A DNA stretch of 64,000 nt, from positions 2,519,492 to 2,583,491 of the forward strand of contig OZ253450.1 in assembly GCA_965261335.1 (NCBI GenBank). Reading direction: 5' to 3'. This document shows positions 4,773 to 43,768 of this stretch, in pieces. Below the pieces are notes generated by a model that saw only the letters and a program-made list of their open reading frames with translations, was not told the origin of the DNA and did not search any database. Every line of letters starts with the position of its first letter. The first letter of the stretch is position 1. Origin of the DNA: Candidatus Spongiihabitans sp. Its GTDB lineage: Bacteria > Pseudomonadota > Gammaproteobacteria > Arenicellales > Poriferihabitantaceae. Made by a program: the position numbers and the translations under genes.

Positions 4773-5189
4773 ATGGTTGCTAGTAGTCGGCATCTTGCCA
4801 GACGATGTGCCATACAGGCACTCTATCAGTGGGGGGTCACCGGGCAGTCGGCAAGTGAGATTGAAAAGGGCTTTATCAAAAATGAAAACCTATCCGGTCG
4901 GCATCTGGATTATTTTCTAATACTCATCAAAAATGTACCCGTGCAGGTTGAAAATATCGACCGGCTTATATCGCCGCACTTAGACCGCAAACTGGAAATG
5001 GTTGATTTGATTGAACATGCGATATTGCGAGTCGCCACCTATGAATTGCAATTTGAACAGGATATTCCGACCCGAGTCATTCTCAATGAAGCGATTGATT
5101 TAGCCAAGATATTTGCTTCGCAGCATAGCTATAAATATGTCAACGGCGTACTCGATAAAGTTGCCCATGCAGTAAGAGGTAAAGCATAA
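4773..5189 (+). CDS. nusB: Transcription antitermination factor NusB
   Basis: RRCAIQALYQW..., size 138 aa, conserved ribH-nusB linkage. Confidence 0.9.
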   Translation: MVASSRHLARRCAIQALYQWGVTGQSASEIEKGFIKNENLSGRHLDYFLILIKNVPVQVENIDRLISPHLDRKLEMVDLIEHAILRVATYELQFEQDIPTRVILNEAIDLAKIFASQHSYKYVNGVLDKVAHAVRGKA

Positions 5190-5212
5190 TTCGCAGCATT
5201 ACCCGCCAAGAT

Positions 5213-5707
5213 TTGTTGCGCTCGCCATGCCATTTTCTGGCACTTGGATTTGGTGCTGGTTTATCACCCAAAGCACCCGGCACAGTAGGCACATTGGTCG
5301 CTATGCCATTGATTTGGCTGTTCGCTCAGTTCGGTACTTTGTTCTATGTGTCGCTGACACTGGTTTGTACGGTAGCTGGCGTAGCGATTTGTGGGCGCGT
5401 GGCAAAAACGCTGACATCGCCATGTTCGGAACAAGGTCGTCCTCAAGATCATCCTGCTATTGTCTGGGACGAAATTGCTGGCATGATGCTGACTATGCTT
5501 TTTATTCCTGTTCACGGGATGACTTTGGTGATGGGTTTTATATTGTTTCGCTTGTTTGACATCTGCAAACCCTGGCCGATTGGTTATTTCGACCGTCAAG
5601 TACACGGTGGTTTGGGCATTATGCTGGATGATATTGTTGCCGCGCTATGCGCCAACATCATACTCAGAATATTGTTGCCTTATTTACCGCCTTATTTATC
5701 ATCGTGA
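5213..5707 (+). CDS. pgpA: Phosphatidylglycerophosphatase A
   Basis: GFGAGLSPKAPGTVGTL N-terminal motif, polytopic membrane protein, WDEIAG, DICKPWP. TTG start. Confidence 0.85.
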   Translation: MLRSPCHFLALGFGAGLSPKAPGTVGTLVAMPLIWLFAQFGTLFYVSLTLVCTVAGVAICGRVAKTLTSPCSEQGRPQDHPAIVWDEIAGMMLTMLFIPVHGMTLVMGFILFRLFDICKPWPIGYFDRQVHGGLGIMLDDIVAALCANIILRILLPYLPPYLSS

Positions 5708-5759: not shown

Positions 5760-6746
5760 ATGTCGTTCCGAGCCTTTAGAATCAATCAAGTTGAAAAAAA
5801 CATCGTCGCAGATTTCGCTGATATGACTATCGACCAGCTCACCGAGGGCGAGGTCGTTATTCGGGTGCAATGGTCGGGAATAAACTTTAAGGACGTTTTA
5901 GCCGCCACTGGACGGGGCAAAATTTTACGCCAATATCCGCTCAATGGCGGGATTGATCTGGCGGGTGTGGTTATGCGATCGACCGATGCACGATTTAAGG
6001 AGGGCGATGAAGTATTGGCAACCGGCGGGGGGTTATCCGAAACTGCCGACGGGGGGTATGCCGAAGTCGCCCGCGTCAAAGCTGATTGTGTTGTGGCATT
6101 GCCGCAAGGGTTGAGCTTGAAGGAATCAATGGCATTGGGGACGGCTGGTTTTACCGCCGCACTGGCTGTGGCGCGAATGGAAACCAATGGTCAAACGCCG
6201 GATGATGGTGCGATAGTGGTCACTGGTGCGAGTGGTGGGGTAGGGAGTACTGCAATCGATATTCTGGCTTCAAAGGGTTATCGGGTGGCGGCATTTAGCG
6301 GCAAAAAAGAGCAACACGAATACTTAAAACAGCTTGGTGCCAATGAATTCATCGACCGACATACTGTAGAGATGGGAACGCGCCCACTGGAATCAGCGTT
6401 GTGGGGCGGTGCCGTTGATAATGCGGGCGGTGAAACGTTGGCATGGCTCACCCGCACGGTTAAACCCTGGGGCAATATTGCCAGCATCGGTTTGGTCGAT
6501 GATTACAATCTCAATACCACAGTGATGCCTTTTATTTTGCGTGGCGTATCGCTATTGGGCATCAACTCCATTGCAATGCCAAGTCATATCAGGGAACAGA
6601 TTTGGCATAGTTTGGGCAATGAATTCAAACCACAGCATCTGGATACAATCGTGACCAATGAAATTGCTTTCGCAGACTTGCCCAATGCGTTTGAGCGTTA
6701 CTTGAACGGAAATAATTGGGGACGAACCATCGTAAAAATCCAGTAA
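5760..6746 (+). CDS. MDR-family NADPH:quinone/acrylyl-CoA reductase-like oxidoreductase (YhdH/AcuI type)
   Basis: SGINFKD, GIDLAGVV and VTGASGGVGS nucleotide-binding motifs, 328 aa. Confidence 0.8.
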   Translation: MSFRAFRINQVEKNIVADFADMTIDQLTEGEVVIRVQWSGINFKDVLAATGRGKILRQYPLNGGIDLAGVVMRSTDARFKEGDEVLATGGGLSETADGGYAEVARVKADCVVALPQGLSLKESMALGTAGFTAALAVARMETNGQTPDDGAIVVTGASGGVGSTAIDILASKGYRVAAFSGKKEQHEYLKQLGANEFIDRHTVEMGTRPLESALWGGAVDNAGGETLAWLTRTVKPWGNIASIGLVDDYNLNTTVMPFILRGVSLLGINSIAMPSHIREQIWHSLGNEFKPQHLDTIVTNEIAFADLPNAFERYLNGNNWGRTIVKIQ

Positions 6747-39995: not shown

Positions 39996-40406
39996 ATGAA
40001 TCCAGAAAAAGTAATAGAAATATTTAGAAAAATATCAAAAAAAGCTTTGTTTCCCCTCACGCTATTAATTTATTCGCTCACAATAGTTTTCGTATCCTAC
40101 ACCCTTGGCACGAAATCTGTTGGAGAAAGACAGAACATCAATGATTTAAATGTCAACACAAGCGATGTTTTATCAATATCTGACCCGCTCCTTATTGAAA
40201 AACTTGCAAATCAATGCCCGCAACTACCACTAGAATTGTTAGATATGGCACTGATGTTTTTTGATAAGTCAGAGAAAAGCACGAATAAGGAAGCATTCTA
40301 TGATTATCCAAAAACTGTAAGTGGTGGCGATCCTTGGGTCAAACGCAAACCCAATCCTTTCGCAAAAGAAAGAGAGAAGGAAAGAGACGCGGCTTTGTCG
40401 AAATAA
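39996..40406 (+). CDS. Small membrane protein in the TrbK (entry-exclusion) position
   Basis: One N-terminal TM helix. The C-terminal 22 aa are identical to the TrbJ tail. Confidence 0.5.
   Translation: MNPEKVIEIFRKISKKALFPLTLLIYSLTIVFVSYTLGTKSVGERQNINDLNVNTSDVLSISDPLLIEKLANQCPQLPLELLDMALMFFDKSEKSTNKEAFYDYPKTVSGGDPWVKRKPNPFAKEREKERDAALSK
40296..40360. repeat. 65-bp perfect direct repeat, copy 2
   Basis: See 39890-39954. Confidence 0.92.
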
Positions 40407-40410
40407 GAAA

Positions 40411-41376
40411 ATGAATATTCGGTACAACATATTCGCGGGGTTGCTTGTGGTCGCTTGTCTGTCAAGTGCTGATGTGTTTGCGGCATCTGACGCAGTATTA
40501 GGTATTGATTCTCTTGTTGGCGAGTTTGAAAGCAAGGCTAATGACTGGCTTGGCCCAATTCTTCGTATTGCTACAACTGTTTTCTGGTCGCTTGCAATAA
40601 TGGAATTCATTCTCTGCTTTGGCAAGCTCGCTATACAGGGCACAGATTTCGCTGAAGTTACTATTGAGCTGTTTCGGAGAATTCTCATATTGTCTTTTGG
40701 TTGGTGGCTCATAAGCAATCCGTGGGTTTTCTGGCATGTCATTAGTGGTTTCCTCGACTCTGCAGCTTTAGCAATGGGCAAGAGTGCTGACTATAGATTC
40801 AATGCAGAACAGGTGATGATCGAAGGGCGTGTTCTCGTAGAACAAATATTCAATCAAACAAAGGAGCTTGGATGGTTTCAAATCTCCGAATCTCTGATGC
40901 TGGTTTTAACTGCTCTCATTATTTTGTGGGGACTGGGAGTTGCCGCAGGTCAAATGCTAATGGTGATGTGCGAGATGTATATTGTTATTTCTCAGGGATT
41001 GATAATGTTGGGTTTGTACAGTCTCGAAATGACACGCGAATACCCGATGAAATTGTTCGGTTCTCTTATCGGTACGGGCATGAAACTATTCTCTCTCCAG
41101 CTGATTATAGGATTGGGTTTTTCATTAATTTTAAGCTGGGTTGAGCTTGGAGCAACCGATGTCGGCAGTTATATGGTTATGGCTGGTGCTGCGATTGCAT
41201 TCAAAGAAATCGCCGTGAAAGTACCTGATTATATGTCTAGTTTATTCTCCGGTTCCCCCGGATCGGGCATTTCAGCCGGTGGCGCGGTTGCTGCTGCTGG
41301 CACGGTCGGTGGCCGCATGGGTGCATTCAATCGTGCTCGTGGGATGGAAGATGCCGCTGATAAATTAGGCAAATAA
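40411..41376 (+). CDS. trbL: TrbL/VirB6 polytopic inner-membrane T4SS protein
   Basis: Signal-like N-terminus (MNIRYNIFAGLLVVACLSSADVFA), multiple TM helices, Gly/Ala-rich C-terminus. Start chosen at ATG 40411. Confidence 0.75.
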   Translation: MNIRYNIFAGLLVVACLSSADVFAASDAVLGIDSLVGEFESKANDWLGPILRIATTVFWSLAIMEFILCFGKLAIQGTDFAEVTIELFRRILILSFGWWLISNPWVFWHVISGFLDSAALAMGKSADYRFNAEQVMIEGRVLVEQIFNQTKELGWFQISESLMLVLTALIILWGLGVAAGQMLMVMCEMYIVISQGLIMLGLYSLEMTREYPMKLFGSLIGTGMKLFSLQLIIGLGFSLILSWVELGATDVGSYMVMAGAAIAFKEIAVKVPDYMSSLFSGSPGSGISAGGAVAAAGTVGGRMGAFNRARGMEDAADKLGK

Positions 41377-41386
41377 TCGGACACCA

Positions 41387-41405
41387 CGCGCCCGTGCGGG
41401 GCGCG
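41387..41405. terminator. GC-rich hairpin between convergent trbL and the small-gene cluster
   Basis: CGCGCCC-gtgcg-GGGCGCG. No clear U-tract. Confidence 0.35.
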
Positions 41406-41494
41406 ACACAAAACACAGCTACTGTTGCTTTGATGCAATCACGAACAGAATGTATGCTACGACCAGTGCAGGGTGTGTGAATAGTTGTATCATT

Positions 41495-41641
41495 TCAATC
41501 GACGTGCGTCGTGTGGTTGGATGGAGGGTATTTATGCTTGTCTGGTCGCTTGTCTTGCTTTCCTTCAAGATACAACCCGACCAGCATGATAATCATCAGC
41601 GGAACAGCAGCGGCTATAGCGGCCCATAATACTGGATTCAT
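41495..41641 (-). CDS. Tiny single-pass membrane protein (48 aa), partner of 41638-41817
   Basis: Own translation: MNPVLWAAIAAAVPLMIIMLVGLYLEGKQDKRPDKHKYPPSNHTTHVD. Its ATG overlaps the upstream stop (AATGA). Confidence 0.45.
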   Translation of the reverse strand: MNPVLWAAIAAAVPLMIIMLVGLYLEGKQDKRPDKHKYPPSNHTTHVD

Positions 41642-41817
41642 TTTTTATCTCCTCTCTGAATACTCGAAGTAAAAATTAAAAGTACACCAATACCAATCAA
41701 ACTCCCAATATGTATTGCCCCAACATGCCCAAAAAAGGCCTGAACCAAACCACCAGCAATTATTACGACACCAACCTGATTAGCAGCAGTCTGGATTTTC
41801 TCGAAATCAATTCTCAT
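41638..41817 (-). CDS. 59-aa two-helix membrane protein
   Basis: Own translation: MRIDFEKIQTAANQVGVVIIAGGLVQAFFGHVGAIHIGSLIGIGVLLIFTSSIQRGDKK. Confidence 0.45.
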   Translation of the reverse strand: MRIDFEKIQTAANQVGVVIIAGGLVQAFFGHVGAIHIGSLIGIGVLLIFTSSIQRGDKK

Positions 41818-41843
41818 TCTTGAATCATACCATAACCAATTAT

Positions 41844-42029
41844 TTAGCGGAGAAAGCTAAACAGTGCGACCATCACCCCTACGCTACCCATTGTTAATCC
41901 GACCATCCACTTGATTAGGTGGGCTTCTATTTTAGCCAACGCTTTATTGAGTTCCAATTTTGTAACCAGATTGGAATTGAGTAGGTCAGCTTGAGATCCG
42001 GCAAGTGCTTCGGCTTGTTGCTCAGGCAT
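41844..42029 (-). CDS. 61-aa coiled-coil + C-terminal TM protein (DUF1640/XhlA-like architecture)
   Basis: LVTKLELNKALAKIEAHLIKWMVGLTMGSVGVMVALFSFL. Confidence 0.45.
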   Translation of the reverse strand: MPEQQAEALAGSQADLLNSNLVTKLELNKALAKIEAHLIKWMVGLTMGSVGVMVALFSFLR

Positions 42030-42083
42030 GCCTGCTACCGTACCTAGTAAGCCAGCAACTGAAACGCAACTGAAACTAAATGG

Positions 42084-42191
42084 TTAATCTGAAGATTCTT
42101 TTGTGTCCTTATCTTGCGTGTGATTATTGAGCAACAAGATAAGAACTAAAACAGCCAATGGTAATACGACCGCATAAAAAGCTGTACTCAT
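42084..42191 (-). CDS. Tiny single-pass membrane protein (35 aa), partner of 42188-42367
   Basis: Own translation: MSTAFYAVVLPLAVLVLILLLNNHTQDKDTKESSD. ATGA overlap with the upstream gene. Confidence 0.45.
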   Translation of the reverse strand: MSTAFYAVVLPLAVLVLILLLNNHTQDKDTKESSD

Positions 42192-42367
42192 TTCGTTTCC
42201 TCCAGTGTGGCAATTAATATAGCAAGAATACCAGCTATAACCATTCCTATTGCCGATAACAAATCACCTTTCTCAATAACTCCATGTGCCGCGCCAGCGG
42301 CAATGGTGACTATCCCGATTCTGCGGATATCTTCTCTTAGATTGTCAGGATTAAACCGGTATTTCAT
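42188..42367 (-). CDS. 59-aa two-helix membrane protein, paralog of 41638-41817
   Basis: Own translation: MKYRFNPDNLREDIRRIGIVTIAAGAAHGVIEKGDLLSAIGMVIAGILAILIATLEETK. Confidence 0.45.
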   Translation of the reverse strand: MKYRFNPDNLREDIRRIGIVTIAAGAAHGVIEKGDLLSAIGMVIAGILAILIATLEETK

Positions 42368-42374
42368 GTTCTTA

Positions 42375-42404
42375 CTGTATCACAAATTCCTGTATCACAA
42401 ATTC
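42375..42404. promoter_or_regulatory. Perfect 15-bp tandem repeat CTGTATCACAAATTC x2 in the 5' region of the small-gene cluster
   Basis: Read directly. Lies 8 nt upstream (on the minus strand) of the ATG at 42367. Confidence 0.6.
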
Positions 42405-42480
42405 ACTTCCTTTGCTTTTCTTCGCAAGCCAGCCATCTGAAAGCCTATAAAATAGATATGTTATATAACAGTGTAGGGAT

Positions 42481-42774
42481 TTATGTCAAATGGCGGGTTA
42501 CATCCATGTTTTGATGCAACACCCCTAATATCTCAATGTGGCTTTCTTTCTCACGAAAAAAAATCACATGCTTGCCCTGTGGGTAGCTTCTATAACCATG
42601 TTTAATATCATCGCGTAGTTTTGCCAGTTTCGGATTTTCTGCCAATCGTTCAAAACATTGGTTAAGGTTGATTAGGTATTTATTGCGCTGTCCTCTGCCC
42701 CATTGCCGTTCTGTATAACGCGCAATGTCACGCATATCGTCCAATGCGTCTGGTGTAAGTTTGAATTCTGACAC
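42481..42774 (-). CDS. parE: ParE-family toxin
   Basis: 97 aa, typical ParE sequence (DIARYTERQWG...HVIFFRE....IEILGVLHQNMD). Coupled to the upstream antitoxin. Confidence 0.85.
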   Translation of the reverse strand: MSEFKLTPDALDDMRDIARYTERQWGRGQRNKYLINLNQCFERLAENPKLAKLRDDIKHGYRSYPQGKHVIFFREKESHIEILGVLHQNMDVTRHLT

Positions 42775-43031
42775 TAGGCAACGCTTTCTTGGTCAATCTC
42801 TTCGATTAGTGTTTCGGCACTGTAATTTACAAACTGATTATTGTCGGCTTGCCGTTCGCTGGCTGATAGTTTAGCTTTCAATGAGTTTAGTTTTACTTCG
42901 TGTTCTTCGAGCAGACATAAAGCGGTCTGTACCACGTCCCTGGCAGATTCGTAATGCCCCTCCTGAATTTGATTACTGATAAAGGCATTAAAACGCTCGT
43001 CTAGTTTGATGTTTGTATTTTTCATAGTCAT
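42774..43031 (-). CDS. parD: ParD-type (CC2985-like) antitoxin
   Basis: NIKLDERFNAFISNQIQEGHYESARDVVQTALCLLEE is the typical type II ParD1/3/4 fold signature. Confidence 0.8.
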   Translation of the reverse strand: MTMKNTNIKLDERFNAFISNQIQEGHYESARDVVQTALCLLEEHEVKLNSLKAKLSASERQADNNQFVNYSAETLIEEIDQESVA

Positions 43032-43201
43032 TTTGAAACCCCGAGCCGTTATAAAATAGATGATGTAATTTTAACATGAACCACCAATTTGTGGCAAAGC
43101 GGGTATTCGGCAAATAAACAGCATTATGAACAACAACTATTATTTGGAAGGCAAAGCGGCGTATAGCACAATTTTGGAAGTTTCTGCGGCGACTATGCAC
43201 A

Positions 43202-43768
43202 ATGATTGCAATCATCGTATCTGGTTTAGGGATAGCGGGTGCGGTGTATGTAGGCAGTCAATCGAAAATACAACCTGTTCTGGTTGTTATGAAAGACGAT
43301 TTTATACCTGTTGGCATCTTTACGCCACAGGGAACAATAGCGGTCAATGACGAGCGAGTAACGAAAGCGACTTTAGCACGTTTAATCACCAGTTTTCGGA
43401 CAGTCAGTAGAGACGGTGATCTACAAAGAAAAAGGGTGAATGAATTAGCTGAATTTGTTAAGAGCGGATCAAGTGCGTATGCAAAAATACAGACTTACAT
43501 GGCGGATGAAAAAACAAATCCGTTCCAGCGAGCGAAAAAAGAAACTGTCGATGTAACGATAGTCAATGTGCTTAAAATCACGACATCGACCTGGCAGGTT
43601 GATTGGATAGAAAGAAGCTGGGCTCGAAATGGACACGTTGATGCGCCATTGAATTATCGGGCTAATTTAACCTTTACACACATGTCATCGGTGCCGGCAC
43701 AGACGATGCTTATTAACCCTACTGGGTTGTTGGTGAGTGATTTGAATTGGGCACGAGTTGCCGGTTAG
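43202..43768 (+). CDS. trbF: TrbF/VirB8-like protein (N-terminus probably frameshifted; see 43126)
   Basis: TM helix followed by an NTF2-like periplasmic domain, position before trbG. The upstream frames carry the missing N-terminal segments (MNNNYYLEGKA in one, KAKRRIAQFWKF in the gene frame without a start codon). Confidence 0.7.
   Translation: MIAIIVSGLGIAGAVYVGSQSKIQPVLVVMKDDFIPVGIFTPQGTIAVNDERVTKATLARLITSFRTVSRDGDLQRKRVNELAEFVKSGSSAYAKIQTYMADEKTNPFQRAKKETVDVTIVNVLKITTSTWQVDWIERSWARNGHVDAPLNYRANLTFTHMSSVPAQTMLINPTGLLVSDLNWARVAG

Follow-up and report, generated by a model that had tools for sequence, protein, structure and literature searches.

Two overlapping gene pairs between parE and trbL

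We analysed a cassette of small membrane-protein genes in a 64,000-nucleotide stretch of Candidatus Spongiihabitans sp. DNA (assembly GCA_965261335.1, contig OZ253450.1, positions 2,519,492 to 2,583,491 of the forward strand; hereafter the window). Five open reading frames (ORFs) lie on the minus strand between parE and trbL. Gene A (42188–42367) encodes a 59-amino-acid (aa) two-helix membrane protein and overlaps, through ATGA, gene a (42084–42191), which encodes its 35-aa single-helix partner. Gene B (41638–41817) encodes a second 59-aa two-helix membrane protein, a paralogue of A, and overlaps in the same way gene b (41495–41641), which encodes a 48-aa single-helix partner. Between the pairs lies gene D (41844–42029), the product of which is a 61-aa coiled coil with a C-terminal helix. 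An initial annotation had proposed these five genes and both overlaps, and reading of the strand together with the ORF listing placed all of them at its coordinates. The equal length of the two-helix proteins, their shared core (IGIVTIAAG and VGVVIIAGG) and the QDK tail of both partners, which it had also described, are present. Both partner genes have strong Shine–Dalgarno sites within the preceding gene (GGAGGA inside the 3′ end of A for a; GAGGAG inside B for b), and b carries a mid-helix proline of the AVPL type that is common to many partners. The two pairs, A–a and B–b, belong to a conserved, always-paired, translationally coupled and co-diversifying two-gene membrane-protein unit.

Substitution patterns indicated that the four pair genes evolve as coding sequence under purifying selection. 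The comparison used a 64%-identical version of the locus on a 1.8-kb Logan contig (L002), where it adjoins the 3′ end of a trbL. The codon-position check for coding came out in favour of all four genes: substitutions were in excess at third positions, and the proportion of non-synonymous differences (pN) was well below that of synonymous differences (pS), at 0.21/0.79 for A, 0.40/0.66 for a, 0.32/0.62 for B and 0.21/0.58 for b (ratios 0.27–0.61). Direct BLASTP similarity between the pairs is weak (E 0.008 for A against B; E 0.001 for a against b). The B and b homologues in L002 are intermediate between the two window paralogues, and thus bridge them, so that A and B, and likewise a and b, are true paralogues, in agreement with the initial annotation. 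The A and a homologues of L002 are fused in frame into a single 94-aa ORF (P0015), and codon 7 of its B homologue is an in-frame TGA; the L002 locus is therefore itself decaying.

To find relatives of the two-helix inner-membrane protein, hereafter the hairpin, a profile built from seven sequences was run with HMMER over the full set of 1.84 billion representatives (E ≤ 1e-3). The family so defined comprises 108 cluster representatives, 94 of them no longer than 80 aa (median 62.5 aa), and the matches are mostly near full length; word-indexed searches for relatives returned almost nothing. A scores 104.5 bits against the family profile and P0007, the 90%-cluster representative of B, which differs from it at one residue, scores 83.9 bits; B matches the profile of A3, the 60-sequence family alignment, at E 1.3e-17. 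Conserved in A3 are an N-terminal ED-x-(R/K)(R/K)-x-G segment that is amphipathic and basic, two hydrophobic, glycine-rich helices and three glycines (G18, G25 and G46 in A). The five window peptides and 60 family members gave only isolated, chance-level matches to Pfam, NCBIfam, PHROGs and PADLOC. Searched against the PADLOC ‘2TM’ effector and SLATT profiles, one of the 60 members matched each weakly (PDLC00695 at E 0.0049; SLATT_6 at E 0.005), and no sensor or nucleotide-signalling gene of two-transmembrane (2-TM) defence systems was present among the neighbours with a Pfam annotation at the loci examined. The best match of the family profile to PDB sequences had an E value of 0.94. An AlphaFold2 model of the P0015 fusion contained three helices (residues 7–30, 36–55 and 62–92) with a predicted local distance difference test score of 76.8 and a predicted template modelling score of 0.48, and its best Foldseek match in the PDB was at E 1.1. 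The family is thus previously undescribed, in line with the initial annotation, which recognised no family for the pair proteins; small membrane modules carried by mobile elements, as a kind of system, are probably not new.

Other searches returned little. The region had no blastn match among plasmids, and tblastn of several family members yielded a single plasmid match, in Methylophaga, and none among 50,697 phage records. Pattern scans of IMG/VR, with the patterns tried, and a first metagenome scan with an A-type pattern were also negative. We considered and rejected an identity with VirB2/VirB3 (TrbC/TrbD): profiles of these proteins gave no match, and the pair also occurs outside transfer clusters.

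We inspected the neighbourhoods of about 20 of the 108 clusters (L011, L013, L014–L016 with two pairs, L017/L019, L021 and L023, L022, L026–L032, L036, L037 and the window-type A, B, C and E). Throughout these lineages, each intact hairpin gene was followed, at a spacing of −8 to +3 nucleotides (nt), by an ORF of 26–55 aa encoding one hydrophobic helix and a charged tail, and most of these partners had a GGAGG- or GAGG-type Shine–Dalgarno site just upstream. Across the fetched loci, a partner-like follower was present for only 2.7% of ORFs that were 50 aa or longer, true pairs counted in. Because a partner follows every intact family member against this background, and because pN is well below pS with an excess of third-position changes, the ORFs are more than chance. 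Shine–Dalgarno sites are also clear ahead of the hairpin gene in relatives. The initial annotation had singled out the cassette as a candidate for an undescribed small system, and its recurrence as a conserved two-gene unit in about 20 lineages upholds that view: the family is defined as always paired, maintained by selection, represented by about 108 clusters and absent from Pfam, NCBIfam, PHROGs, PADLOC and the PDB.

Partner subtype tracked hairpin subtype across the inspected lineages. Hairpins of the AANQ/ASQAG type have partners with a mid-helix AVPL, those of the EDLRK type have proline-less partners with a W-x-x-K/R tail, and the A-type hairpin has a VLPL partner. Charge bias placed the hairpin N terminus in the cytoplasm (mean net charge +1.2) and its loop outside, and oriented the partners mostly N-out/C-in; the A–a subtype has an acidic tail, consistent with the topology of the fused form. 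A second in-frame fusion (P0023) is 86 aa long. A programmed frameshift joining A and a was also examined and set aside: each lineage has its own start and Shine–Dalgarno site, the spacing is variable (−8 to +3), and a slippery site is lacking. Annotation systematically under-represents proteins shorter than about 60 residues. On plasmid pWTT2411 of Methylophaga pinxianii (NZ_CP095734.1; L032), a cultured strain, the 62-aa hairpin (WP_226069712.1) is a ‘hypothetical protein’ in RefSeq, and the 33-aa partner ORF overlapping it (6180–6281; the pair spans 5995–6281) has no RefSeq annotation. An odd neighbourhood occurs on a Tara Oceans contig (L011, 574–950), where a 27-aa partner is present in two tandem copies behind the hairpin gene, with the gene for the ATP synthase gamma subunit directly after them.

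Gene D and the history of the array

The initial annotation had likened the 61-aa D product to XhlA. This identification did not hold, as D failed the XhlA profiles (no match to PF10779 at E ≤ 1; phrog_1193, ‘hemolysin’, at only E 0.14 and 13.2 bits). D instead appears to be a 5′-truncated copy of a DUF1640/CCDC90-like gene for a tail-anchored coiled coil, and is probably a remnant. L001, L004 and L005 carry an intact 82-aa gene, and D matches its C-terminal 61 residues at about 95% identity; D lacks the first 21 residues (an AFDT-type head helix) and starts at an internal methionine after the head. The head of the 82-aa L004 form matched PF07798 (CCDC90-like/DUF1640) at E 3.2e-7 and 30.8 bits, below the 33.5 cut-off, and the DUF1640 gene beside a distant pair in L028 scored 35.9 bits, above it; D itself had no PF07798 match and no Pfam match at all. 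What D retains is the beta-layer motif, L-V-T-K-L-E, and the C-terminal membrane helix, ending WMVGLTMGSVGVMVALFSFLR. The motif, as (V/A)-T-K-x-(D/E), and the C-terminal membrane helix are shared between D and relatives of 82–113 aa, which also have the AFDT... head; the beta-layer motif described for DUF1640 proteins, at the start of the stalk, is [aliphatic]-A-T-K-[polar]-[DE] (PMC4786415). In L007, D has undergone a further 12-nt deletion and is 57 aa long.

Members of the DUF1640 family (PF07798), among them MCUR1, CCDC90B and tail-anchored coiled coils of prokaryotes, are neighbours and not homologues of the pairs. DUF1640 genes adjoin pairs in three independent lineages (the window type, L014–L016 and L028), and most pair loci have none. 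The chromosomal islands L014–L016 hold many DUF1640 paralogues (79–159 aa), interleaved with porin and AAA_16/AAA_22 ATPase genes; there, stalk length varies through an internal 11-residue repeat, giving 113 versus 153 aa; the genes at 4915–5376 and 5526–5867 of L015 are an example.

The window array consists of A–a, a vestige of a third hairpin gene (E), the truncated DUF1640 gene D, B–b and an orphan partner remnant. DNA alignment with L004 and L005 revealed a deletion of about 330 base pairs (bp) in the window, L001 and L007 that took out a truncated E together with its partner e, as well as the DUF1640 gene's 5′ end. The a–D spacer (42030–42083, minus strand) retains a sliver of helix 1 of an E-type hairpin, together with an 11-bp tandem duplication, GTTTCAGTTGC x2, at 42055–42076 that is single in L001. 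The orphan, a 24-aa ORF (MIQLFTHPALVVAYILFVIASKQQ; 41419–41493, minus strand), starts 1 nt after the b stop; it is an e-type partner that has lost 7 aa internally and lacks a hairpin gene of its own. Longer versions of e, 31–33 aa long, follow the truncated E in L004 and L005 and an intact E in the plasmid contig L031, where the E–e pair is intact. A third paralogous pair, C–c, is present in L007, L009 and L010 and truncated in L001, and the trbL 3′ end with a G+C-rich DNA hairpin is repeated wherever extra cassettes have been inserted (L001, L003 and L007). The locus is therefore a decaying, recombination-prone stack of pair cassettes.

A 1.8-kb insert separates the pair cassette from trbL in L001 (4742–6527), and the trbL 3′ end with its DNA hairpin flanks it as a direct repeat. 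Within the insert are a C-type hairpin gene, truncated, and a DUF1640 gene of 82 aa, intact, along with genes for two further proteins: one of 282 aa, a membrane protein that matches GAF weakly, and one of 153 aa that belongs to no family. The insert may be another accessory or defence cassette.

Upstream of A, on the minus strand, a tandem 15-bp repeat (GAATTTGTGATACAG x2; 42375–42404) occupies the leader, 7 nt from the start codon, and is perfect, as first described. Two copies are present in the window and L007 and one in L001, L002 and L003–L006; the core TTGTGATACAGT is kept in the 64%-identical L002. The repeat is thus a strain-level duplication and not a conserved feature, and the two independent tandem duplications, of 15 and 11 bp, are both common to the window and L007 only. 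A consensus scan of the leader found no sigma-70 promoter, and we infer only that the repeat might act as an extended −10 element or operator.

Directly upstream of the cassette and on the same strand lies parD–parE (42481–43031), with ParD at 43031–42774 (PF03693, 2.3e-19) and ParE at 42774–42481 (PF05016, 1.1e-19 in Pfam). The consensus scan placed a promoter-like site upstream of parDE at 43097–43068, and parDE is possibly co-transcribed with the cassette. On the other side, trbL/virB6 (40321–41376) is on the plus strand, convergent with the cassette; the G+C-rich DNA hairpin (41378–41412), which includes a terminator-like site at 41394–41378, lies between them. The VirB8 gene (43202–43768) and, beyond it, CagX/TrbG-type and TrbI genes are also on the plus strand. 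The cassette had initially been placed within the trb operon. It is indeed an accessory cassette inside a Trb/VirB-type transfer region, but it lies with parDE on the strand opposite to the trb genes; because of this orientation, the cassette and parDE together are an insertion between trbL and trbF/virB8, outside the trb transcript, and not part of the operon.

Mobile context of the pairs

Relatives of the window element came from several 1.6–3.4-Mb contigs of one long-read metagenome. As L003–L008 were retrieved by exact match to a, the apparent invariance of a among them is unusable. A–a and B–b were intact in all five transfer-linked copies, with parE broken in three and D in three. Inactivation of parE took a different form in each case: in L001 (1849–3551), an insertion sequence (IS) lies just downstream of a truncated 73-aa parE; in L005 (5435–5683), the gene is truncated; and in L007 (5417–5711), it is split by a frameshift. 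In all three, parD is intact, which is the expected order of toxin–antitoxin decay. The transfer genes also vary. In the window, trbE is in two pieces, of 273 and 184 aa, next to an IS, compared with 709 aa in L007, and TrbL lacks 61 Ala/Gly-rich residues near its C terminus (about 41285–41295, codon about 323), a segment that is present in L004 and L007 and mostly present in L005. Two TrbL alleles, 72–74% identical, occur among otherwise near-identical elements, pointing to recombination within the transfer region.

Among close copies, differences in A and B are mostly non-synonymous, and A varies at 8 residues across near-identical elements. Several copies lie away from transfer genes: L003 near AbiEi/SNF2, L006 and L008, in which A is pseudogenised, near IS110, and L009 and L010 next to a broken rimO-like gene. 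More distant members were found on a Rep3 plasmid with PemK (L031), on a RepA/Tn3 contig, between AcaB/bPH_2 and ssb, beside DUF3577/DUF2958 and beside an S24 repressor. The Methylophaga plasmid pair is near a TraI-domain gene and the gene for PRTRC-system protein D; in metagenome-assembled genomes of lucinid symbionts, the pair adjoins Toprim primase, resolvase and type I restriction–modification genes; and in L037 it lies 3′ of TraG_N in a TraU/TraC cluster. The chromosomal-island pairs of L013–L016 and the L011 pair, which is next to an ATP synthase gene, have no transfer genes nearby. The named hosts (Thiomicrospira, Sedimenticola, Methylothermaceae, Methylophaga and a lucinid symbiont) are all Gammaproteobacteria. 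The context is thus mostly mobile: plasmids and conjugative elements of environmental Gammaproteobacteria carry the pair as accessory cargo.

Candidate functions of the pair

The pair proteins can act only through the membrane, because they have no soluble domain. Our favoured reading, held tentatively as a possibility, is that the pair is a membrane toxin/antidote-type module. We favour it because the pair is a coupled bicistron among stability genes, because pairs persist in elements with broken transfer genes and parE, because every one of the five orphans is a partner and no intact hairpin gene lacks one, and because the partner has the stronger ribosome-binding site. The adjacent parDE shares the format of an ATGA-coupled bicistron, and bicistronic, coupled genes are the layout of type II toxin–antitoxin modules generally: like these, the pairs are co-directional small genes on mobile elements with overlapping or near stop and start (−8 to +3 nt). 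The orphans are a in L006/L008, b in L009, e in L004/L005, e in the window and a c-like partner in L031. Neighbours with roles in stability or defence include parDE, Rep3 with PemK, AcaB/bPH/ssb, primase/resolvase/type I restriction–modification genes and AbiEi. In size and architecture (a 57–60-aa hairpin; a 30–50-aa helix with a charged tail), the pair proteins resemble the two-helix toxin GhoT and the one-helix toxins Hok, Fst and Ldr, and small membrane toxins, like the pairs, are carried on plasmids beside other stability genes. A comparable small two-helix gene, yqjE, is reported to be toxic when overexpressed (PMC11302039).

Under a toxin/antidote reading, the two proteins would assemble 1:1 within the membrane. 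The hairpin, through its glycine zipper, would oligomerise and permeabilise or depolarise the membrane, and the one-helix partner would bind it within the bilayer and hold it silent. As the partner gene lies downstream with a stronger ribosome-binding site, the partner would never be made without transcription of the hairpin gene. Loss of the element, or a trigger such as entry of phage or foreign DNA, could then shift the balance so that the cell stops, stabilising or protecting the mobile element; the DUF1640 stalk, where present, might be a third, regulatory or scaffolding subunit.

Several observations weigh against this reading. The family has no homology to any known toxin, antitoxin or holin in Pfam, NCBIfam, PHROG or PADLOC, and none of the small membrane toxins named above is a sequence match. 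The 41200–43200 region contained no Rfam family at E ≤ 1, and hence no known antisense RNA family, and no Pfam or NCBIfam toxin match. No described toxin–antitoxin type is known to use a membrane-peptide antidote, and gene orders with the toxin first are less common. Antagonists would not be expected to occur as in-frame fusions of toxin and antidote, but L002 is decaying, with a stop in its B homologue. The bias towards orphan partners is weak, with a probability of about 0.08 expected from target size alone, and could also reflect chance survival of short ORFs and the fetching of loci by exact match to a. For several partners, charge bias gives an ambiguous topology. The family is rare, with many of its copies in pseudogene-rich genomes.

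An alternative to which we assign a lower, though not negligible, likelihood is that the pair serves entry or superinfection exclusion, sitting in the inner membrane of a recipient and blocking related elements or phages through the VirB6/TraG-type protein of the donor, with paralogous pairs providing several specificities. The pair lies directly 3′ of a VirB6-class gene in two transfer systems that are not related (trbL in the window and L002; TraG_N in L037), many other copies are on conjugative or mobilisable elements, the 8 variable residues of A in near-identical elements reflect mostly amino-acid-changing differences, and the fusions fit a two-subunit complex. Known exclusion genes adjoin or act on genes of this kind, as with eexC and traG, or sfx next to traN (PMC11493245). 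TrbK of IncP, Eex/EexC (acting on TraG) and TraS of F are small envelope proteins whose genes lie within transfer regions, adjoining a VirB6/TraG-class gene, as do the pairs of the window and L037. The pair, however, shows no lipobox or other lipoprotein signal, is not similar to TrbK, TraS or Eex, comprises two genes instead of one and is not confined to conjugative elements, with transfer genes absent from the vicinity on the Rep3 plasmid (L031), in the islands of L013–L016 and in L011. In the window, it is convergent to trbL, and the TrbK slot between trbJ and trbL is already filled by another small gene. We looked for co-variation of cassette and TrbL alleles in the window, L004, L005 and L007 and did not find it: cassette alleles assort independently of TrbL alleles (72% versus 98% identity), with all four combinations present. 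It is distinctly unlikely, in our estimate, that the window ORFs are non-functional leftovers, decaying in a pseudogene-rich genome. The surrounding element is degraded, with the split trbE and the 61-aa deletion in trbL; the truncated D, the orphan e, the pseudogenised A in L006/L008, the stop in the L002 B homologue and the mostly non-synonymous differences among close copies of A and B also speak for decay. Set against this are the integrity of A–a and B–b in all five transfer-linked copies despite breakage of parE and D, the retention of start codons, Shine–Dalgarno sites and overlaps, and the strong signal of selection and pairing across the family.

By layout, the closest known system is YqjD–YqjE–YqjK of Escherichia coli, or PA3040–PA3042 of Pseudomonas aeruginosa, which is no sequence relative. 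By analogy, the pair could be an envelope or stationary-phase module that buffers membrane stress or modulates the host without killing it, a role that we consider unlikely. When a DUF1640 gene is present, as it is beside pairs in three independent lineages, the three-part order is the same (a tail-anchored coiled coil, a two-helix gene and an overlapping one-helix gene), and yqjE and yqjK of E. coli overlap by 11 nt. PA3040–3042 responds when the envelope is stressed and on exposure to phage (PMC11302039). Yet hhalign probabilities were only 0.3% when the family was compared with YqjE and 0.2% when the partners were compared with YqjK, no family member matched PF07332 (YqjE) or PF13997 (YqjK) in Pfam, and YqjE and YqjK are 134 and 99 aa long, compared with about 60 and about 35 aa for the pair proteins. 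The anchors also differ, being DUF883 in Yqj and DUF1640, absent from most loci, in the pairs; and Yqj/PA304x genes are single-copy core chromosomal genes, unlike the multi-copy, recombining and rapidly turned-over mobile cargo to which the pairs belong. The initial annotation had seen a likeness to holin/antiholin sets, and a lysis-control function with D as an XhlA-like accessory is the explanation that we find most improbable. A two-helix protein with charged ends and a small membrane partner do resemble pinholin/antiholin sets, and D has the XhlA layout of a coiled coil and C-terminal helix, but what the pairs share with XhlA and holin/antiholin cassettes is a generic small-membrane-protein layout with no family match. 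Neither an endolysin nor a spanin gene lies beside the pair in any of about 20 lineages, and no lysin or holin family gene was found in the window region or related loci. None of 60 members matched any PHROG (E ≤ 1e-3) or Pfam holin family (E ≤ 0.01), no relatives were detected in the phage records or, with the patterns tried, in IMG/VR, and D has no XhlA match; context thus largely refutes the lysis reading, which we disfavour.

If the pair is a toxin/antidote or an exclusion device, its format, with a protein antidote or co-subunit inside the bilayer, would be new and would add to the minimal conflict systems. With four short genes and a cultured host, these possibilities are directly testable. 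A bolder extension, built on analogy and in our view highly doubtful, is that the pair and DUF1640 form a three-subunit membrane machine of mobile elements, in which a trimeric, tail-anchored stalk, a beta-layer coiled coil, would gate or scaffold a small pore made of the glycine-zipper hairpin and its partner, as an enzyme-free switch collapsing membrane potential on element loss or invasion. Its logic would be that of mitochondrial MCU (a two-helix pore), EMRE (its one-helix partner) and MCUR1 (the eukaryotic DUF1640 protein). The role of DUF1640 in mitochondria is debated, and if the pair does partner a DUF1640 stalk, it would provide a genetic handle on that family.

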